Made by a program: the position numbers and the translations under genes. A model generated the notes under the pieces. It had not been told where the DNA came from, made no database searches, and saw only the letters and a list, made by a program, of their open reading frames with translations. Below, one piece after another: positions 4,668 through 25,644 of a stretch of 64,000 nucleotides of DNA; positions within the stretch are counted from its first letter, which is position 1, and the number at the start of each line of letters is the position of its first letter. Origin of the DNA: Candidatus Humimicrobiia bacterium (GTDB lineage: Bacteria > Actinomycetota > Humimicrobiia > JAHJRV01); the NCBI GenBank assembly GCA_049647085.1, contig JBARXA010000006.1, positions 2,670 through 66,669 of the forward strand, written 5' to 3'.

Positions 4668-5912
4668 TTATTGAGTAGGATCAAAAACTCTTCCCATAAA
4701 TAGAACATTACCAGTTTCTCTTTCTTGTATCATAAATATAAATGGGTGATCTGCATTAAAAACAGTTTTTTCAGAAATAGCTTCTTTCATAACTACAGCA
4801 GTTGCAGCTGCAGCTTCAGTTCCTTCTTCATTAACCTCAACAAAAGCTTGGTGAATTACATTACTAATGAAAAGAGTTTTTGTACCATTCATTCCTGAGA
4901 AATCTGCACCACCAAAAGCAGATGGCATTCCCATTTCAATTAATGTCTCTTTCATAAAATATTTAGTTTCAAATTTAAATTTAGGTATATAAACATCAAC
5001 TTCTTGTTTTGTTAGAGCATTTCTTAATTCATTAAGTTTTTCCAAACTGAGTAAATCTTCTACTGATTTTAAATTATCTTCTTTTGGAAGAATAATTAAC
5101 ATTGACAATTCTTCTCCATCATATGGCATCTCAAGAACCCGAAGCTCTTCGGTTTCAGCATAGTTAAATTCTTCATCAGTTAAACTCATCATATCAACTT
5201 TAACTGTTTTTTCGGAACTTACTTTAAAATCTTCTTCTCTAGTATCTTCTTTATTAAATTGAAGCAACCATGTTCCTTTAAAATATATTGCATTGGTGAG
5301 AACTAAGCGTGTATCTGGGTCAAGAACACCTTGTGGTATTAAGTCTTTTATTTTATTGTTTGTCCTTTCTTCTACCCAGCTGTTAATTGTTTTTCTTGAC
5401 TTTTCAGTTTCATTTACAAAATCTAAATTTGTAGCTTTTCCAGCATAATATTTTTCTACTACATCTAAATATTCATCTAAAAAAAGATAATCTATTTGTG
5501 TCCACAGTGCATTTGCTGTATGTAGTTTATATTTCTTATCTTTTTTATTTATCTGATTGTAAATTCTTGCAAAAGAGTATCTGCGAATATCATCATCTTG
5601 GGGTAAATAAAAAACAGACCTCATCTCTTCCGCTGTTTTTCCTCTTGCTCCTTCATAAGTCATTGCCAGTGCTGTAGAGATACTGTATGGAGAGAAAAAG
5701 ATATTGTCCTCACTATATTCCGGGGTATCTTTAAATTTTAAATACAAATCTAATGCAAATTGATTATTAGCATCTACAACAATACCAACCCCTTCATTGG
5801 TTGCTTTGCTATCAGCTGCTGTTGGTATTATTTCTTCTGGATTCTCCGGTGCTTTAACACAACCATTAATTAGAATAATTACTAAAAATAATAATAATAA
5901 AATGTGTTTCAT
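4668..5912 (-). CDS. serpin (serine protease inhibitor), lipoprotein
   Basis: 414 aa. Signal peptide with an LINGC lipobox. C-terminal serpin signature ...FNADHPFIFMIQERETGNVLFMGRV. Confidence 0.85.
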   Translation of the reverse strand: MKHILLLLFLVIILINGCVKAPENPEEIIPTAADSKATNEGVGIVVDANNQFALDLYLKFKDTPEYSEDNIFFSPYSISTALAMTYEGARGKTAEEMRSVFYLPQDDDIRRYSFARIYNQINKKDKKYKLHTANALWTQIDYLFLDEYLDVVEKYYAGKATNLDFVNETEKSRKTINSWVEERTNNKIKDLIPQGVLDPDTRLVLTNAIYFKGTWLLQFNKEDTREEDFKVSSEKTVKVDMMSLTDEEFNYAETEELRVLEMPYDGEELSMLIILPKEDNLKSVEDLLSLEKLNELRNALTKQEVDVYIPKFKFETKYFMKETLIEMGMPSAFGGADFSGMNGTKTLFISNVIHQAFVEVNEEGTEAAAATAVVMKEAISEKTVFNADHPFIFMIQERETGNVLFMGRVFDPTQ

Positions 5913-7245: not shown

Positions 7246-7923
7246 ATGGAAGAGAAATACAGGAAAATAAAAGGAATTGTTAAAAAAGAATTATCATGCT
7301 CTGCTCATAACGTGGAGCATATAATGAGAGTTTATAATCTATGTTTACATTTAGCAGAAAATGAACCAGATATAGATATAGATATTCTAAAAACAGCTGC
7401 CTTACTTCATGATATTGGAAGGGTTAAAGAAGATGAAGATGATTCTGGAAGAATTGACCATGCAATTCTTGGTACCAAAATGGCTGAAAAAATCTTAAGA
7501 AATTTAGGTTATGAAGAAAGTAAAATAGAAAAAATTAAACATTGCATAATGACTCATAGATTCAGAAGTGAAAATGTTCCCAAAACAAAGGAAGCAAAGA
7601 TTCTCTTTGATGCTGATAAATTGGATGTTCTTGGTTCAATAGGAATTGCAAGAGCTTTTATTATAGCGGGACAATATGGAGAGAAAATTTATTCTGATAT
7701 TCCTATTGATAAATATACTAAAGATAATATTGTTGGTGAGAAGCAAAATGGTAGAATCAAAGATTTATCCAAACATGCTGTAAATCTTGAGTTTGAAATG
7801 AAATTCAAACATATTCCAGAAAAGCTCTACACTAAAAAAGCGAAAGAAATTGCAAAACAAAGATTTAAATTTATGAAACAGTTCTTTAAGAGATTAAAGA
7901 GGGAAATTAACGGAGAAATATAA
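7246..7923 (+). CDS. HD-domain phosphohydrolase
   Basis: H...HD motif (HNVEH ... LHDIGR) and downstream D. Confidence 0.7.
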   Translation: MEEKYRKIKGIVKKELSCSAHNVEHIMRVYNLCLHLAENEPDIDIDILKTAALLHDIGRVKEDEDDSGRIDHAILGTKMAEKILRNLGYEESKIEKIKHCIMTHRFRSENVPKTKEAKILFDADKLDVLGSIGIARAFIIAGQYGEKIYSDIPIDKYTKDNIVGEKQNGRIKDLSKHAVNLEFEMKFKHIPEKLYTKKAKEIAKQRFKFMKQFFKRLKREINGEI

Positions 7924-13010: not shown

Positions 13011-13101
13011 GGAGGAGTGCAGGAGTGGCCGATCTGGCGATACTGGAAATATCGTAGGCGGTGAAAGTCGCCTCGTGGGTTCGAATCCCACCTCCTCCGC
13101 C
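13011..13101 (+). tRNA. tRNA-Ser (anticodon GGA), class II with long variable arm, encoded CCA
   Basis: Acceptor stem GGAGGAG/CTCCTCC, U8, 3-bp D-stem with GG in the loop, anticodon stem CGATA/TATCG with loop CTGGAAA, variable stem GGCG/CGCC, T-arm GTGGG-TTCGAAT-CCCAC, then G-CCA. Confidence 0.85.
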
Positions 13102-13315
13102 AATTTTAAAATAAAGTGCTTTTCACCAAAATCCCCTCCATGCAATTTATACTTCAAAACTAAAAGAAAAATATTATAGAGTCGATTGTTTTCATGTTCC
13201 TATTTTATGTCTATTTCAATTGACTTTGAATATTTTAAATAATTCTCCAATCTGTTAAAATTAAAAAAGTCTATTTACAAGGTAATTTTCTACATTAATA
13301 TATAGGAGAATTGAT

Positions 13316-13685: not shown

Positions 13686-13715
13686 TTGACAAATAATAAA
13701 TTTTTGATTTAGAAT
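13686..13715 (+). promoter_or_regulatory. sigma70-like promoter (TTGACA - 18 nt - TAGAAT)
   Basis: Hexamers at 13686-13691 and 13710-13715. Confidence 0.45.
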
Positions 13716-13723
13716 TTTACCCA

Positions 13724-13905
13724 ACAATAGAAAATTTAATAATTTGCTGAATTCAAAAGAAGCGGAGGAACCATCTTTTTGGGGTGAATCTTGCAAAAGC
13801 AAGTAGGGTTAAAGTCTTTCGATCCAAACCCGTCAGCTAACTCCGTAAGCATTGAGAGATGTTCATCTGGTCACTGATGGTTTCTCCAGTGACTTTATTT
13901 TTTAA
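13724..13905 (+). ncRNA. candidate structured leader or small RNA ending in an intrinsic terminator, immediately 5' of the HEAT-repeat gene
   Basis: GC-richer than the flanks, with local hairpins such as CTTGC-AAAA-GCAAG. It is bounded by the 13686 promoter and the 13870 terminator. No known riboswitch consensus was recognised. Confidence 0.35.
13870..13905 (+). terminator. intrinsic terminator (GTCACTG-ATGGTTTCTC-CAGTGAC then TTTATTTTTT)
   Basis: 7-bp perfect stem plus a T-run, 5 nt before the ATG at 13911. Confidence 0.6.
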
Positions 13906-13910
13906 TAGAT

Positions 13911-14816
13911 ATGAACATGAAGACATTTAATTTATTTGAGCCAAATATAGAAGAAATGATAAAAAGAAAAGATGTTATAGGTTTGATAAAAAGCTTAAAA
14001 CATAAGGATTTTGTCGTACGGAGGCATGCAGTATGGGCTCTTGGAAATATAGGGGATACAAGAGGTGTGGAACCTCTAATTCAAGCTTTAAAAGATGAAC
14101 ATGTCTTTGTTCGAGGAGCAGCAGCATTAGCTCTTGGATTAATGAGAGATGTAAGGATATTAGAACCTCTTATTCAGGCTCTCAAAGATACAAATTTGTA
14201 TGTTAAATCAGCAGCAGCATTGGCTCTTGGGAATATAGGAGAACCAGCAGTAAAACCACTAATTAAGATTCTCAAAGATAAAAACTTACATGTTCAAGCA
14301 GCAGCAACAGAAGCCCTTGGAAGAATAGGGGAGCCTGCAGTAGATTCTCTAATTCAAGCTCTGAAAGATGAACATACCTTTGTTAAAGCAGCAGCAGCAT
14401 TAGCTCTTGGATTAATAAAAGATGTAAAAGCAGTAGAACCATTAATTAATGCCCTTAAAGATAAAGATAAAGATGTACGAATAAGTGTAGTAGAAGCTCT
14501 TGGAAAAATAGGGGATTTAAAAGCAGTAGAACCATTAATTCAGACCCTTAAAGATGAGGATGCGGTTGTTAAGAGATACACAGCAGAAGCTCTTGGAAGG
14601 ATAGAGAATGTAATAGCAATTGAACCTCTAATTCAAGTTCTTAAAGATAAAAATTTGTATGTTCAAGCAGCAGCAACAGCTGCTCTTGGAAAGATAGGAG
14701 AACCGGCAATAGAACCTTTAATTCAAGCTCTAAAAAACAAAGATGAGGATCTTCAGAGGGCAGCTAAAAGGATTTTAATTAGAATTAGAGCAAAGAAATC
14801 TAAGAATGATAGGTAA
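13911..14816 (+). CDS. HEAT-repeat protein (PBS-lyase HEAT-like repeats)
   Basis: About nine tandem 31-aa repeats (EPLIQALKD.. ..VR..AA.ALG.IG). Confidence 0.8.
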   Translation: MNMKTFNLFEPNIEEMIKRKDVIGLIKSLKHKDFVVRRHAVWALGNIGDTRGVEPLIQALKDEHVFVRGAAALALGLMRDVRILEPLIQALKDTNLYVKSAAALALGNIGEPAVKPLIKILKDKNLHVQAAATEALGRIGEPAVDSLIQALKDEHTFVKAAAALALGLIKDVKAVEPLINALKDKDKDVRISVVEALGKIGDLKAVEPLIQTLKDEDAVVKRYTAEALGRIENVIAIEPLIQVLKDKNLYVQAAATAALGKIGEPAIEPLIQALKNKDEDLQRAAKRILIRIRAKKSKNDR

Positions 14817-14830
14817 ATTTTTATAAAGAG

Positions 14831-14865
14831 ATTGCCACGCCACCCTCGGTGGCTCGCAACGACAA
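14831..14865 (-). repeat. family-1 REP-like repeat (ATTGCCACGCCACCCTCGGTGGCTCGCAACGACAA)
   Basis: GCCACC-CTC-GGTGGC perfect hairpin. Reverse complement of the 10262 type. Confidence 0.7.
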
Positions 14866-14925
14866 CTAAAGAAATCTAAAAATGATAAGTGAATTTTATA
14901 ACTTAAACAAAATAAGGTAAGAAAT

Positions 14926-16122
14926 ATGAAAAGAGAAGAAATATTACAGAATGCAAAGGGTTATTGTTTTTTCATTGGATTAAATGATAGTGGAGCAGAA
15001 TTATGTAGAGCTAATACTGTTTATGGCATTGCAGCAATTCATTACATTCAACATCAACTTGGTATGAGCCCAAATGCTACTTTTATTGCTTCACCAGATA
15101 TGACCATTACTAGAAACACAAATAGATGGAAAAGCGGGTTTGGATATGGAGGGAAGATAAGCTGGGGAGAAGGGGAAGATGAATTAATTATTCTTAACAC
15201 AAAGCCTAATGCATGTGGAATGCTTGTTGGCGGATTAGATAAATTACCCGATATTGAGGTTTTAATTAGAAAGCTACATAAGATGGAAACGAGTAAAATA
15301 CAGATGGATGGTGTTACATTGAAATGGGACTTTTACAAAGGAAATCACTTTATAGATATATTTGAAGTAGAACCCGTTGCAAAATTTGATATAAATCTAC
15401 CTCCATATGCTTTTGTAATACACGGATCTGCTGATGAATTTAGAGGGGATAATAAATCAGGTTTTGGAATATATTATGATAAGAGCAAACAATTGTATAA
15501 TATGGCAGAACGTATTAAGACACCTTTTGGAACTTTTAATATCCTAACAGGTAATGATGCTAAAAAGTATTTTGAAAAATATAATTATGTTGAGGATTTT
15601 GCAAAAAAGAAAAGGAGAATGGGTGCTGAACTCTTGTTTGAAGAATTCACAGAAATTTCTAATGAAATGCACCAAGGTCTTATAAATATAAATGAGATAA
15701 TTTTGGGTTGTCATTATTTAAGAAACTTAAATACACTTTTTTCAATAACACTAAGAGGAGATTTACCTGCCTATTTAGTAAAAGGTAACCCAAATTTGAG
15801 TCCCCAAAGTATAGAGTTATTAGGTTTTGAAAAAAGAGCAAAAAGATTGGGGGTTTATGATAGGCTTATAAATGCTAACATAATACCCCATGGTGGAGGA
15901 TATGTCTTTCCTGATATTTTAACTATAAATAAAGTGATAGAAGTTGAGAGGAAAAGATACTTTGAAGTTGAGATGCAAAACGATAGAGGTAAGAAAATCA
16001 TATCAGAAGTGCGGGAGTTAGCTTATGAATATAGAGGACGGAATGTAGTGCTGCGCGCTTTAGAAATTGGAATAATAGATATTGTAGCTAAGTTGATTCC
16101 ACAATATGTCTTAAAAATATAA
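14926..16122 (+). CDS. divergent RtcB-family RNA ligase-like protein
   Basis: 398 aa. NACGML resembles the RtcB GCGM Cys motif, KGNHFIDIFEV resembles RtcB GGGNHFIE, and IHGSADEFRG resembles RtcB HGAGR. It is shorter and divergent versus canonical RtcB. Confidence 0.45.
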   Translation: MKREEILQNAKGYCFFIGLNDSGAELCRANTVYGIAAIHYIQHQLGMSPNATFIASPDMTITRNTNRWKSGFGYGGKISWGEGEDELIILNTKPNACGMLVGGLDKLPDIEVLIRKLHKMETSKIQMDGVTLKWDFYKGNHFIDIFEVEPVAKFDINLPPYAFVIHGSADEFRGDNKSGFGIYYDKSKQLYNMAERIKTPFGTFNILTGNDAKKYFEKYNYVEDFAKKKRRMGAELLFEEFTEISNEMHQGLININEIILGCHYLRNLNTLFSITLRGDLPAYLVKGNPNLSPQSIELLGFEKRAKRLGVYDRLINANIIPHGGGYVFPDILTINKVIEVERKRYFEVEMQNDRGKKIISEVRELAYEYRGRNVVLRALEIGIIDIVAKLIPQYVLKI

Positions 16123-16144
16123 AGATTAAACAGTTGGCTATGTA

Positions 16145-16564
16145 TTATTGTCTTATATAGTAATTTACCTCTTTTACGAAATCTGTGTAAAGCTTTATTG
16201 CTTCTTTGATGCTACTGTAAACAATATCATCCTTTATCTCATCATATTCGTGAACTAATCTATTTCTCAAACCAGCCGAGGGAGCTAATTTTTCTCCCAA
16301 TTGCTTTGATATTAATCCAATTTCAATAGCTTTTATAAATGAGTCATAATAATCAGTTGGTGGATTTTTTCCAATCTCAACAATAACATATGAATTTATA
16401 TCAGTTGCTACTTCTGCAAGTAATAAAATTAATCTTTCAACTGCTCTTTTTTTGATAAAATCTCTTTTGTATTCTTCAAAAGTAATGTTAGAAAAAGTTT
16501 TTAATTCCTGTATATAATTTTTTATTTTTAGTAGCTTGCTTAATACAATATCTTTGTTTATCAA
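16145..16564 (-). CDS. hepT: HepT (DUF86) RNase toxin
   Basis: 139 aa with the Rx4HxY motif in RNRLVHEY. Confidence 0.8.
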   Translation of the reverse strand: MINKDIVLSKLLKIKNYIQELKTFSNITFEEYKRDFIKKRAVERLILLLAEVATDINSYVIVEIGKNPPTDYYDSFIKAIEIGLISKQLGEKLAPSAGLRNRLVHEYDEIKDDIVYSSIKEAIKLYTDFVKEVNYYIRQ

Positions 16565-16630
16565 TTAATCCTCTTTATTTAACATAAGTAAACTGCTCTG
16601 TCTTGTGTAAGACGCTTCCCAGTAAAAAAT

Positions 16631-17287
16631 TCAAATTTTATTTTCCAATAAAAAGTTTTTAATACTTTTTTGATATAAATTACGAAATTTTTTTGTATCC
16701 ATATAGTACTTTAATGACTTTATTTTAAAATTATCCAGTATTTCCTTCTCTCTCTCAAATATTGCCGTTCCTTTAGTGGCTACCTCATATTTGAGTATTG
16801 GATTTGCTCGATTAAGAATTACTAAGTCAATATTATCCATCTTTAATAGTCTAACAAGGTCAGAGGAAATATCTAAAAGTAATTCTGAATATTTGTCTTT
16901 ACCTGTATCAGTTTTAAGAAGAATTCCAATATCCAGATCACTTAAAATTGTTGCATTATCAGTAGAGTAGGAACCAAATATAAAGGACGCAATTACCTCA
17001 GGACTGTTTTTAAAATAAATTCTAATTATTGAAAAAAGCTCAGCTTTCTTTTCTTTAGATATTTTTTTAATTTTTTCTACCGTGATTGTTTCTTTAGCTT
17101 CTGAATAAATGAGACCTTTTTTTTGTTCAACTGCCATATCTTTATCTCTTCTACCCATGTATTCTCTTAATGACTCTCTGATTAACTCACTTCTTTTTCT
17201 ATGTTCTTTTTTTGAGAATTCGTCAACCCTTGATAGAAAATCTTTTGGGATGGTTATATTAATTCTCTTAGCCATATTTATCACCAA
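16631..17287 (-). CDS. MNT (minimal nucleotidyltransferase) antitoxin with an N-terminal RHH DNA-binding domain
   Basis: N-terminus MAKRINITIPKDFLSRVDEF...SELIRESLREYM (RHH). GS-x10-DLD NTase motif (GSYSTDNATILSDLDIG). Immediately upstream of hepT. Confidence 0.75.
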   Translation of the reverse strand: MVINMAKRINITIPKDFLSRVDEFSKKEHRKRSELIRESLREYMGRRDKDMAVEQKKGLIYSEAKETITVEKIKKISKEKKAELFSIIRIYFKNSPEVIASFIFGSYSTDNATILSDLDIGILLKTDTGKDKYSELLLDISSDLVRLLKMDNIDLVILNRANPILKYEVATKGTAIFEREKEILDNFKIKSLKYYMDTKKFRNLYQKSIKNFLLENKI

Positions 17288-17611: not shown

Positions 17612-17770
17612 ATGAAAAAAGAAAACAAGATAATTGCAGTTTGTGGTTTAAACTGTAGCAAATGTGACATTTTTGAAGCAACAAATAATTCAAAGGTAGC
17701 ACAGCAAATTTCAGATTGGTTTAAAGAAGAAAAAGATACACTAAAGCTTTGGAGCAACTTAGCAAGATGA
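17612..17770 (+). CDS. DUF3795-family fragment (52 aa), truncated paralog of 1920-2279
   Basis: GGGAG RBS. MKKENKIIAVCGLNCSKCDIFEATNN... then stops after the first CxxC pair. Confidence 0.45.
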   Translation: MKKENKIIAVCGLNCSKCDIFEATNNSKVAQQISDWFKEEKDTLKLWSNLAR

Positions 17771-17814
17771 AATCTAAATAATAACCGGAATTTCAAATTT
17801 AAAGGGGAGTTTTA

Positions 17815-18174
17815 ATGTTAGACATGAACAGAATGATAGAAATCATAAAAAAAAATCAAGATTTTAAAAAAGTAGGAATGATTCTTTGTCATAACGGAGT
17901 AGTTAGAGGATATTCCAAGGACGGAAAAAAAGTAAAAGGATTAAAAGTAAAATTAGATAAGGTTAAACTAAAAGATTTAATTAATAGAATTAAAAAGAAA
18001 CCAGGAATAATTGATGTCTTAGTAAATATAAGAGAGGGAGAACTATCAATTGGAGAAGATATCATGTATGTAGTAATTGCAGGTGATATCAGAGAGAATG
18101 TTTTCCCAGCTCTTGAAGAAGCAGTAAACAGTATAAAAAGTTATGTAATAAAAAAAGAAGAAGAAATCTTCTAA
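17815..18174 (+). CDS. MoaE-like (molybdopterin synthase large-subunit family) protein
   Basis: GMILCHNGVVRG ... VLVNIREGELSIGEDIMYVVIAGDIRENVF ... IKKEE parallels MoaE VTFTGKVR ... VIHRIGEL.PGDEIVFVGVTSAHR ... FWKRE. Confidence 0.45.
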   Translation: MLDMNRMIEIIKKNQDFKKVGMILCHNGVVRGYSKDGKKVKGLKVKLDKVKLKDLINRIKKKPGIIDVLVNIREGELSIGEDIMYVVIAGDIRENVFPALEEAVNSIKSYVIKKEEEIF

Positions 18175-18289: not shown

Positions 18290-19420
18290 ATGTAATATAG
18301 AAAATTAGGAAACACAGGTTTGGATGTTAGTGTAATAGGATTGGGAGCAGAATATCTGTTTTACCAAGATAAAAATACAGTTGTATCTGTAATAAATAAA
18401 GCTATTGATAATGGCATCAACTATATTGATATAGTTTTTAATATTACAAATTTCCTTGATAATATATCTGCTGGAATCAAGGGTAAAAGAGAGAAGATAA
18501 TCCTAACCGGACATTTAGGTTCTGGTGAAAAGAATGGAAAATATTACAAGACTTATAAGGTTAAGCAATGTGAAGAAATATTTAATAAACTGCTTTCTAA
18601 ATTAAACATTGATTATATTGATATAGTCAATTTACATAATGTAAGAAATGAAAATCAGTATAAGAAAGTAATATCCTCAGGTGGTTTATTAGATTTTGCT
18701 CTTCAGTTGAAAGAAGAAGGTTTAGCACGTTTCATTAGTATTAGTACACACGATATTTCAGTCGCAAAAAAGGTAGCAAGAAGTGGAAAAATAGATGTGA
18801 TAATGATTCAGGTAAATTTAGCAAACAATGCAATGGTGGGAAGAAATGAGATGTTAGCTACGTGTGCAAGGAAGGCAATTGGTCTTGTTGCTATGAAGGT
18901 TTTTGCTGGAGGAAAGTTGCTTCAGAGAAATAGAACAGTTAATATTGCTGCCTGGCGAACAGGGGGAATGAGACTTAAGAAAAAGATTTCTCCATCTATA
19001 ACTCCTATTAAATGTATAAGTTATACCCTTTCACAAGTAGGTGTTTGTACAGTTGTACCAGGGGTTAAAAACGTTGATGAGCTAAATGATGCTATTGATT
19101 ATTTAAATGCAACTGATGAAGAAAAAGATTTTTCTGAACTGTTAACTGATTTTAATGAATATATTACAGGAGAATGTGTTTATTGCAATCATTGTCTTCC
19201 ATGCCCATCAGATATAGATATAGGTCAAATGATACGATTATTTGAAGTTGCTAAACAAGAGTTAACTAAAGAAATTCAGAATGAATATAACAAGCTTCCA
19301 GCAAAAGCATCAGATTGTAATGAATGCGGAGTGTGTATAGAAAGATGTCCATTTGAAGTGGATGTCATTTCAAAAATGAAACAAATTAGAAAACTATTTG
19401 AATTAAATAATCAGATATAA
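18290..19420 (+). CDS. aldo/keto reductase fused to a C-terminal 2x[4Fe-4S] ferredoxin domain; ATG at 18290 is followed by an in-frame TAA (alternative TTG start at 18320)
   Basis: GAGGAAAG RBS then ATG TAA TAT AGA AAA TTA GGA AAC ACA GGT TTG = M*YRKLGNTGLDVSVIGLG, the canonical AKR N-terminus. CVYCNHCLPCP and CNECGVCIERCP cluster motifs. Confidence 0.8.
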
Positions 19421-19530
19421 GTCGGTATATTATAATAGGGGATTGCCACGCCACCTTCAGTGGCTCGCAATGACAAACAGGAGCTGTTCAGAATGTCAAG
19501 AATTAAATAATCAGATATAAGTCAGTATAA
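19399..19530 (+). repeat. 30-bp direct duplication (GAATTAAATAATCAGATATAAGTC[G/A]GTATA) flanking an inserted family-1 repeat at 19442-19476
   Basis: Copy 1 at 19399-19430 is the last codons and stop of the AKR gene. Copy 2 is at 19499-19530. There is one mismatch. Confidence 0.7.
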
Positions 19531-24165: not shown

Positions 24166-25644
24166 ATGAAAATACTTCTTGTCTATCCAGAGTATCCAGA
24201 CACCTTCTGGAGTTTTAAGTACGCCTTAAAATTTATCTCTAGAAAAGCAACCTTCCCACCTTTAGGGTTGTTGACTATAGCTGCAATGCTTCCCAAAGAG
24301 TGGGAGAAAAAACTTGTGGATATGACAGTAACAACATTAAGTGATAGTGACATTGAGTGGGCTGATTATGTATTTATTAGTGCTATGTCTATTCAAAAGG
24401 AATCTGTGAAAAGGGTAATTGTTAAATGCAAAAGGTTGGGAGCTAAGATTGTTGCTGGTGGTTCTCTCTTTACGAGCGGATATGAAGATTTCGAGGACGT
24501 AGATTATCTTGTACTTAATGAGGCTGAAATTACATTACCATCCTTTTTAAAAGATTTAAAAGAGGGGTCTCCTAAACATATCTACACATCAGATCAGTGG
24601 GCAGATATAAAAAAGACACCAATCCCACTTTGGGAACTAGCTAATATGAAGAAATATGCCTCTATGTGTATCCAATATTCACGAGGTTGTCCATTTAATT
24701 GTGAATTCTGCGATGTCACCTTACTTTTTGGGCACAAGGTGCGAATAAAAACTAAAGACCAGATATTAGCAGAATTAGATAGCCTATATTCACAGGGCTG
24801 GAGGAGTGGAGTATTTATTGTTGACGACAACTTTATTGGAAATAAGAGAGAGTTAAAAAAGGAAGTTCTACCAGCTATGATTGACTGGATGAAGAAAAGA
24901 AAACATCCTTTCTCCTTTACCACACAGACCTCAATAAATCTCTCCGATGATGAAGAACTTATGCAGTTGATGGTTCAGGCAGGGTTTAACGCAGTATTTG
25001 TTGGTATTGAGACTCCCAATGAAGAGAGCTTAGCCGAATGTGGAAAGGTTCAAAACCAAAATCGTGATCTAATAGCTTGTGTTAAGAAAATTCAAAGGTT
25101 TGGTTTGCAAGTTCAAGGAGGATTTATTGTTGGTTTCGATAGTGATCCACTCTCAATTTTTGAAAGGTTAATTGAATTTATTCAAAAAAGTGGAATTGTC
25201 ACTGCCATGGTTGGGTTATTAAATGCTCCTCGTGGTACCAAACTCTACCATCGACTTGTAAAGGAGGATAGATTATTGAAGGATGTTTCGGGTGATAACA
25301 CAGACCTTTCAATCAACTTTATCCCCAAAATGAACTACGAAGCGCTTATAAGCGGCTATAAAAGAGTTCTCCGTACAATCTATTCCCATAAGCATTACTA
25401 TGAACGGATCCAGACTCTTTTGAGAAACTTTAAGCCTTTACAAAAAAAGAAATATCAATTTCATCTCTGCTATCTTAAGGCATTCGTTAAATCTATATGG
25501 CTTCTAGGAATAAGAGGAAAAGGAAGGATTTATTATTGGAAACTCCTTTTCTGGTCTTTGTTTAAGCGTCCACAACTTTTTCCACTGGCAGTAACCTTTG
25601 CCATTTACGGATTCCATTTTCGTAAGATTTTTAAAAATTATTAA
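24166..25644 (+). CDS. B12-binding-domain radical SAM protein (class B)
   Basis: N-terminal B12-binding region (LLVYPEYPD...PPLGLLTIAAML) and CxxxCxxC (CPFNCEFC). Confidence 0.85.
   Translation: MKILLVYPEYPDTFWSFKYALKFISRKATFPPLGLLTIAAMLPKEWEKKLVDMTVTTLSDSDIEWADYVFISAMSIQKESVKRVIVKCKRLGAKIVAGGSLFTSGYEDFEDVDYLVLNEAEITLPSFLKDLKEGSPKHIYTSDQWADIKKTPIPLWELANMKKYASMCIQYSRGCPFNCEFCDVTLLFGHKVRIKTKDQILAELDSLYSQGWRSGVFIVDDNFIGNKRELKKEVLPAMIDWMKKRKHPFSFTTQTSINLSDDEELMQLMVQAGFNAVFVGIETPNEESLAECGKVQNQNRDLIACVKKIQRFGLQVQGGFIVGFDSDPLSIFERLIEFIQKSGIVTAMVGLLNAPRGTKLYHRLVKEDRLLKDVSGDNTDLSINFIPKMNYEALISGYKRVLRTIYSHKHYYERIQTLLRNFKPLQKKKYQFHLCYLKAFVKSIWLLGIRGKGRIYYWKLLFWSLFKRPQLFPLAVTFAIYGFHFRKIFKNY

Follow-up and report, generated by a model that had tools for sequence, protein, structure and literature searches.

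A divergent RtcB-like protein encoded behind a predicted cyclic di-AMP riboswitch in Candidatus Humimicrobiia

To our knowledge, RtcB is so far a fold with a single recognised family, and we know of no other ligase chemistry that joins 3'-phosphate ends directly. Riboswitches for cyclic di-adenosine monophosphate (c-di-AMP) typically act on osmolyte, K+ and cell-wall genes (PMC6488665, PMC9960051). Here we describe a locus in which an RtcB-like gene lies behind a predicted riboswitch of this class, within a 64,000-nucleotide (nt) stretch of a Candidatus Humimicrobiia genome (assembly GCA_049647085.1, contig JBARXA010000006.1, positions 2,670 to 66,669 of the forward strand), called here the window. 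The gene is found on the forward strand at 14926-16122 (coordinates are those of the window unless another locus is named) and encodes a protein of 398 residues with remote homology to RtcB, hereafter X. It is the second gene after the riboswitch, the first encoding a HEAT-repeat protein, and a HepT/MntA toxin-antitoxin module lies immediately downstream on the opposite strand. An initial annotation of the DNA had named these four open reading frames (ORFs), and all of them are real. The explanation that we favour, with slightly better than even confidence, is that X is an RtcB-type enzyme acting through a histidine-nucleoside monophosphate (His-NMP) intermediate, that it is expressed from a c-di-AMP-controlled unit, and that both the HEAT gene and the toxin module are incidental to it.

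The RtcB-like protein and its active site

The sequence of X is identical to that of MGB3345833.1. Searched alone, X gave no match in Pfam, in NCBIfam or among PDB sequences (phmmer), and PADLOC holds no model for it, the matches of the HEAT and MntA proteins in that collection being to a generic repeat and a generic nucleotidyltransferase. At E ≤ 1e-3 we retrieved 992 homologues, which form 326 clusters at the 50% identity level, and X is encoded in 175 of the species genomes scanned. Every named member is labelled "hypothetical", and none of the 120 homologues listed has a precomputed Pfam domain; the family is unannotated, being absent from both Pfam and NCBIfam. Its hosts are uncultured anaerobic bacteria and archaea. 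On the bacterial side these comprise Planctomycetota, Anaerolineae, Spirochaetota, Atribacterota, Desulfobacterales, Clostridia, Aerophobetes, Bipolaricaulia and Humimicrobiia-like metagenome-assembled genomes (MAGs), and on the archaeal side Bathyarchaeia, Thor-, Heimdall-, Hod-, Woese- and Nanoarchaeota and Methanocellales, Asgard lineages included, with identities ranging from 45% to 78%. A literature search that stopped short of the main RNA-repair survey returned nothing on the X family, on its HD partner described below or on an RtcB-type gene under a c-di-AMP riboswitch.

The structure of X was predicted twice with AlphaFold2, once from 36 close homologues (model 1, predicted local distance difference test score (pLDDT) of 85.2) and once from 79 diverse representatives with identities down to 21% (model 2, pLDDT 96.8, predicted template modelling score 0.94); the same 79 representatives, aligned as profile A2, underlie all conservation counts given here. 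When the models were compared to the PDB with Foldseek, every significant match was an RtcB, 13 for model 1 (E 5e-6 to 2e-4) and 15 for model 2 (E 8e-9 to 6e-5), all with a probability of 1.00 and including 4DWQ, 1UC2, 2EPG, 7P3B, 8ODP and 9I8V, and the next non-RtcB match had an E of 0.15-0.4. RtcB also provided the top four matches of profile A2 among PDB sequences (E 0.006-0.011), in alignments that cover the motifs NHF and HxS as well as HGxG...Y(K/R)...K near the C-terminus. In hhalign, A2 matched E. coli RtcB alone with 94.2% probability (E 1e-7) and an alignment of ten bona fide RtcBs (A3, made of E. coli RtcB and nine phage or virus proteins) with 98.7% probability (E 2.1e-16) over 287 columns. 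Profile A1, built from close homologues, had MqsA as its sole match in the PDB, over 23 residues, and this match was judged spurious. On the basis of models and profiles, X has an RtcB-like fold and is a remote RtcB homologue, in line with its initial description as a divergent RtcB-like protein. It is collinear with RtcB (PF01139; 4DWQ, 1UC2, 2EPG, 7P3B) over about 290 columns. It is also of similar size, 398 residues vs 408 for E. coli RtcB, so that the description of X as much shorter than RtcB has to be dropped.

X and RtcB share the motifs xxCG(M), (G/S)NHF, HxGS, PHGxG with the nucleophilic His, P..Y(K/R) and a C-terminal Lys. In X, they include KPNACGM (C97), GNHFID (H141), HGSADEF (H166), HQG (H249) and PHGGGY (H322). 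The first three had been picked out by the initial annotation and are conserved across the 79 representatives; HQG and PHGGGY had been overlooked. The residues predicted to be catalytic are N95, C97, N140, H141, H166, H249, H322, Y369, R370 and K397. The cysteine C97, equivalent to C78 of E. coli RtcB, is present in 75 of the 79 representatives, N140-H141-F142 (N167-H168-F169 in E. coli) in 77, 79 and 77 respectively, and R230 (R247) in 76. Conservation is complete (79/79) for H166 (H185), H249 (H281), G261 (G300) and G75. The stretch P321-H322-G323-x-G325, which corresponds to the PHGAG motif of RtcB with H337-G338-A339-G340, is retained in 78, 79, 76 and 78 representatives, Y369-R370 (Y380-K381) in 62 (plus 9 with Phe) and 72, and K397 (K407) in 48 (plus 14 with Arg). 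Both in hmmsearch against the PDB and in hhalign, H322 aligns to the guanylylated His of RtcB (H337 in E. coli, H404 in P. horikoshii). Because H141, H166, H249 and H322 never vary and all but four representatives keep C97, at identities that fall so low, these motifs are not considered a product of chance. According to these alignments, X would keep four of the five RtcB metal ligands (C97, H141, H166 and H249) together with the nucleophilic His, H322.

Several features of the protein itself weigh against an RtcB-type activity. PF01139 does not match X even at E ≤ 1, the Pfam gathering threshold thus not being reached, and gives sub-threshold matches in only 5 of the 79 representatives (best E 0.007). 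Template modelling scores between X and RtcB are only 0.41-0.48, indicating a strongly diverged fold, and sequence identity to RtcB is 10-13%, below Pfam and NCBIfam detection. It should be noted that the position of H249 in hhalign is offset by one column from the metal-binding His281. Moreover, the Asp metal ligand of RtcB, D75 in DxGCG, is replaced by N95 in X, with Asn in 71 and Asp in 3 of the 79 representatives. R189 is missing, the RtcB sequence HSGSRG reading HGSADEF in X, as are R341 and R345, PHGAGRxxSR having become PHGGGYxxP, and N282 and K299 are not conserved in the family. All six residues (D75, R189, N282, K299, R341 and R345) are invariant in alignment A3, and mutagenesis of RtcB has found some of these non-retained residues to be essential. 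The comparison of X with RtcB by profile and structure that the initial annotation had called for therefore bears out the fold, the Cys and three His ligands and the nucleophilic His, but neither the Asp ligand nor a score above the Pfam threshold.

The substitution of Asn for the metal-ligand Asp and the loss of several RtcB-invariant residues could be taken to mean that X, although of the RtcB fold, has no catalytic activity and serves only in binding or regulation. This we regard as most unlikely, as the near-invariance of the four His, the Cys and the Gly residues beside them extends down to 21% identity and across two domains of life; because of that invariance, the active site appears to be maintained. 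The alignments thus point to a catalytic core under strong selection, with a fifth ligand and part of a phosphate- and substrate-binding shell that differ. Since the core is kept but the Asp ligand and the Arg/Lys/Asn shell are altered, X is best described as representing a probably ancient family that is sister to RtcB within the same fold, and not as an RtcB: judged by its residues, it resembles RtcB in its catalytic core, yet it lies outside PF01139.

The leader upstream of the HEAT gene and X

Upstream of the HEAT gene, a σ70-like promoter (TTGACA-18-TAGAAT, forward strand, 13686-13715), which matches the consensus at 11 of 12 positions and would be expected to drive the unit, is followed on the same strand by a c-di-AMP (ydaO/yuaA) riboswitch aptamer (Rfam RF00379, 13735-13865). 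The aptamer scored 104.2 bits vs a gathering score of 38 (E 9e-25), matched the model over its full length (positions 1-134/134) and was the sole Rfam family to reach threshold within the window. It precedes an expression-platform hairpin, GTCACTG / CAGTGAC, and the U-tract TTTATTTTTT (13870-13903, forward strand), which were read as a putative intrinsic terminator. The fold of 13845-13905 has a free energy of -15.5 kcal/mol (z-score -2.0); our simple terminator scan overlooked this hairpin, whose loop is 10 nt. A promoter, a leader and a terminator had already been placed before the HEAT gene by the initial annotation, and all three were seen; what had escaped it is the identity of the leader as a c-di-AMP riboswitch.

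Among the loci that carry X homologues (see below), L016 (105.5 bits) and L034 (98.3 bits) have the same aptamer. The promoter-like sequence is kept in both relatives, and the terminator hairpin is retained in L034 with base changes. In L016, the promoter, aptamer and hairpin lie upstream of a HEAT-X pair, and in L034 they immediately precede X, a HEAT gene being absent. Because the riboswitch precedes X without HEAT in L034, the conserved unit in this clade consists of the riboswitch followed by X. A regular-expression scan detected no riboswitch beyond the window, L016 and L034, and neither did R1, a covariance model of these three aptamers that was run over 84 sources and 1.2 Mb. Within the sequence scanned, the predicted riboswitch control of X is specific to this clade.

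With its full-length, high-scoring aptamer (104 bits), a promoter-like site on its 5' side, a hairpin and U-tract on its 3' side and an arrangement kept in two relatives, the leader is a standard member of its class, for which ligand binding and gene control are predicted. It differs from the described members in what lies downstream, the HEAT and RtcB-like genes falling outside the transporter, K+ and cell-wall targets found in the searchable literature; a search for ydaO together with HEAT or PBS lyase gave nothing relevant. We propose that the HEAT gene and X form a two-gene unit, with X in second position, that would be co-transcribed from the σ70-like promoter through the riboswitch. By analogy with known switches, binding of c-di-AMP would terminate transcription, and expression would be higher at low c-di-AMP.

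Two points speak against this regulatory part of the model. The link between the riboswitch and X is confined to three related genomes, and the hairpin of minimum free energy shares part of its sequence with the 3' strand of aptamer stem P1. Because of this overlap the switch may have an ON arrangement, its OFF direction being assumed from precedent only.

As to the spacer between the HEAT gene and X, the simple scan predicted no terminator there. The spacer contains a GC-rich palindromic element, TTGCCACGCCACCCTCGGTGGCTCGCAACGAC (14832-14863, forward strand), that forms a hairpin in the fold and is flanked by 30-nt direct repeats (14792-14821 and 14868-14897) that are 90% identical and include the HEAT stop codon. 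A second copy of the element, with 0 expected by chance, lies at 19443-19474, after an aldo-keto reductase gene, and the element is conserved in L016. Its sequence looks like that of a REP/MITE-like insertion (repetitive extragenic palindrome or miniature inverted-repeat transposable element) or of a local duplication, and since no U-tract follows it, it is probably not a terminator.

Gene partners and proposed function of X

The genomic context of X was surveyed by calling and clustering ORFs in 82 loci carrying X homologues, the window being one of them. In 29 of these loci, an HD phosphohydrolase of about 216 residues is encoded within about 610 nt of X; restricting the count to loci with 800 nt or more on each side of X gives 26 out of 69. 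The HD gene may be upstream or downstream of X, is on the same strand in 28 of the 29 cases and is usually only a few tens of nt away. Such loci are spread over more than 10 phyla, bacterial and archaeal, and include X homologues 73-78% identical to the window protein. The HD proteins are of the YedJ/YpgQ type (PDB 3GW7, E 7e-22; 5DQV; NF007515), and the metal motifs H..HD..H..D are intact in their consensus. They match this family, as does an HD protein encoded in the window, but with scores of at most 99 bits vs an equivalog cut-off of 286. The window HD gene (7246-7923, forward strand; Pfam HD, E 1.4e-16; PDB 3gw7, YedJ, E 7e-22) is the sole window ORF matching a hidden Markov model of the X-adjacent HD proteins (E 3.7e-29); it was rejected as an operon partner of X, as it lies 7 kb away and is not syntenic in L034. 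No HD::X fusion was found, and the searchable literature holds no link between the YedJ/YpgQ HD family and an RtcB-like enzyme. The only activity that we know of in this family is the nucleotide pyrophosphohydrolase activity of YpgQ. From its recurrence beside X, the HD phosphohydrolase probably works with X in most lineages, and it may act on the substrate of X or on its nucleotide cofactor.

We propose that X would bind a divalent metal and a nucleoside triphosphate on its Cys/His centre and form a covalent His322-NMP intermediate. The NMP would then be transferred to a terminal phosphate, and attack of a hydroxyl on the activated phosphate would yield a phosphodiester. Its substrate would most likely be a nucleic-acid end, that is, a 3'-phosphate or 2',3'-cyclic phosphate joined to a 5'-OH, an assignment to which we would give a little less than an even chance; a non-RNA phosphomonoester is the main alternative, and a distinctly less likely one. 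Owing to the altered residues (Asp to Asn; R189, K299, N282, R341 and R345 lost), the substrate or the nucleotide may differ from those of RtcB.

A nucleic-acid end-processing context is provided by one lineage of Planctomycetota. In five loci (L002 8001-15386, L023, L027, L030 and L031), X is followed on the same strand by genes for PolX (PHP) and NTPase_1, and subsets of these loci also encode DUF429 (L002, L023, L027), a Clp1-type polynucleotide kinase (L002, L030) and the RNA 3'-phosphate cyclase RtcA (L002, L030, L031), the kinase and/or RtcA being located 3-5 kb downstream of X. The usual companions of RtcB are RtcA, archease, Ro and PrfH, unlike the HD and ATP-grasp partners of X, and it counts against an RtcB-like role that archease, Ro and PrfH were not seen next to X and that RtcA occurs in this lineage only, at this distance.

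Many other neighbourhoods of X have a metabolic appearance and weigh against the joining of nucleic-acid ends. ATP-grasp ligases of three subfamilies (Ddl-like, ATPgrasp_ST and CP_ATPgrasp_2-like) adjoin X in 12 loci from six phyla, and a lysine-2,3-aminomutase-like radical SAM gene accompanies some of them. The neighbours in Atribacterota are spermidine synthase and an Asp/Glu racemase, AstE/AspA is also among the metabolic neighbours, and in Planctomycetota polyamine genes occur along with a DksA/YteA-type zinc-finger gene that overlaps the start of X. In two proteins of 743 and 748 residues (P0137, L096 6001-8232; and P0270), X is fused to an APH-type small-molecule kinase, in an operon that holds two radical SAM genes, an aminotransferase, an SDR and HAD hydrolases. 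The two fusions come from independent sources and form one cluster. A fusion of X with a formyltransferase was seen in a single case (P0230), a cyclic nucleotide-binding protein is encoded near X in Spirochaetes, and a further candidate fusion of 565 residues (P0145), whose tail is of low complexity, was discarded as a likely frameshift artefact.

These contexts suggest another reading, in which X applies RtcB-type phosphate activation to a small molecule or nucleotide, possibly osmolyte- or cofactor-like, with the HD and ATP-grasp proteins as pathway partners. X would then form or alter a phosphodiester in that compound, which might be, for instance, a metabolite phosphorylated by a kinase. 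The loss of the phosphate- and RNA-binding Arg residues of RtcB, the YpgQ/YedJ type of the HD partner and the biosynthetic appearance of the operon with the APH fusion would all agree with it, and c-di-AMP control of X would be in keeping with the regulon for osmotic and ion homeostasis that such riboswitches usually serve. However, no single metabolic pathway recurs across the contexts of X, the APH fusion is rare (one cluster of two sequences), and one lineage pairs X with PolX, the Clp1 kinase and RtcA. We also know of no characterised member of the RtcB fold that acts on anything other than nucleic-acid ends. Action on a small molecule is thus possible, but we hold it to be rather unlikely.

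Returning to X as an RtcB-type enzyme, we put forward only tentatively, and at less than even confidence, the wider proposal that it founds an unrecognised sister family of RtcB with a new His-NMP phosphate activation, usually paired with an HD protein and placed in the c-di-AMP regulon in Humimicrobiia. Such a family would perform either nucleic-acid end-joining independent of RtcA and archease or the first RtcB chemistry on a non-RNA substrate.

The HepT/MntA module, the surrounding genes and the significance of the family

The two genes downstream of X, both on the reverse strand, encode a type VII toxin-antitoxin module. HepT, a HEPN RNase toxin of 139 residues (16145-16564), scores 102.8 bits with NF047751 vs a cut-off of 60 and matches PF01934 (E 2e-27); its Rx4H motif reads RNRLVH (residues 100-105), and an AGAGGA Shine-Dalgarno sequence precedes its TTG start. 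The antitoxin, a MntA nucleotidyltransferase of 218 residues (16631-17287) whose start, from the sequence, is probably the ATG at 17275, scores 79 bits with NF047752 vs a cut-off of 60 and matches PF18765 (E 3e-17) and, through an N-terminal RHH (CopG) domain, RHH_1 (E 1.6e-6); its GSx11DLD motif is GSYSTDNATILSDLD. As in described HepT/MntA systems, both NCBIfam equivalog models are matched above cut-off, the proteins carry the Rx4H and GSx(n)DxD motifs, and the gene for MntA directly precedes hepT on their shared strand. By contrast, the RHH domain is an addition, and the two genes do not overlap but are 66 nt apart.

RNases of the HEPN family need no metal and generate 2',3'-cyclic phosphate ends, which are the substrate of RtcB. 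The initial annotation had built on this chemistry, proposing that X reseals RNAs cut by the adjacent HepT, perhaps in a HEAT-scaffolded complex. Both HepT and MntA are intact in the window, and X and hepT are only 22 nt apart. This distance separates two stop codons: HepT does lie immediately downstream on the opposite strand, but the genes are convergent (tail-to-tail) and not back-to-back, so that they have no promoter region in common, and they are under separate control, by the riboswitch for X and by the RHH autorepressor domain for the toxin-antitoxin pair. As no terminator is predicted between X and hepT (16122-16145), transcripts reading through from the unit behind the riboswitch would run antisense to the toxin mRNA.

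Conservation decides against this repair pairing. An intact HepT/MNT pair adjoins X in none of the 81 other loci; L091 has an unrelated pair, about 6.6 kb from X. L016, whose X is 95% identical to that of the window, retains a decayed HepT of 310 nt (L016 7826-8135, 92% identical to window 16154-16463) and no MntA, with an OsmC-like gene inserted between X and the remnant (gene and remnant within L016 7290-8135); it offers a snapshot of toxin-antitoxin decay. L034 is syntenic with the window through ABC-transporter genes and tRNA-Ser, and has neither the HEAT nor the toxin-antitoxin genes at this place, its only HepT-like sequence being a fragment of 59 nt that lies downstream of X at about 2.6 kb. 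Since the intact pair is found in no other locus and is decayed in L016, its position beside X appears incidental, HepT and the RHH-bearing MntA being an ordinary mobile type VII pair that would have been placed there by chance. Absent conservation leaves the repair of HepT-cut RNA by X close to refuted, and we judge it very unlikely.

The HEAT gene fares similarly. It encodes a HEAT/PBS-lyase-type repeat protein of 301 residues (13911-14816, forward strand), the first gene after the riboswitch, with a Pfam HEAT_2 match at E 2.5e-62, HEAT_PBS in 8 stretches and seven 'EPLIxALKD' anchors spaced by 30-31 residues. A HEAT homologue adjoins X in 1 of the 81 other loci, L016 only, and is absent from L034, so that neither the co-occurrence of the two genes across genomes nor a HEAT-scaffolded complex as a general feature holds up. 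The HEAT gene is a lineage-specific passenger in the unit, a feature of one shallow lineage.

Other genes of the window were also recorded. A tRNA-Ser(GGA) gene lies just 5' of the region (13011-13102), and its long variable arm produces a sub-threshold tRNA-Sec match in Rfam (39.4 bits vs 47). Past the toxin-antitoxin module, 17612-18174 and 18320-19420 encode a truncated DUF3795 ORF (52 residues), a MoaE-like protein (119 residues) and an aldo-keto reductase::4Fe-4S dicluster fusion. A MoaE-like gene is also found 3' of X in L016 and L034 and an aldo-keto reductase gene in L016, and distant aldo-keto reductases occur at a similar distance in the Spirochaetes loci L004, L033 and L041. A full-length serpin (PF00079, E 2e-126) is encoded at 4668-5912 on the reverse strand in this bacterial MAG. 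The 492-residue ORF at 24166-25644, which its size had suggested to be a canonical RtcB, is a B12-binding radical SAM protein with DUF4070 instead, and a Pfam scan of ten other window ORFs found no canonical RtcB, RtcA or archease among them.

Taken together, the juxtaposition with HepT/MNT is ordinary, and the interest of the locus rests on X and its regulation. A second, deeply diverged family would show the reach of RtcB chemistry, with a kept Cys/His centre and nucleophile, altered phosphate-binding residues and other partners. It would constitute a defined new target for RNA-repair biochemists, and a functional assignment of X would annotate many MAG genes together, as there are about 1000 homologues. 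The riboswitch link, for its part, would place an RtcB-like enzyme in the c-di-AMP regulon and offers a testable regulatory handle; if true, it would be the first case in which second-messenger signalling, linked to K+ and osmotic state, is tied to an RtcB-like activity.

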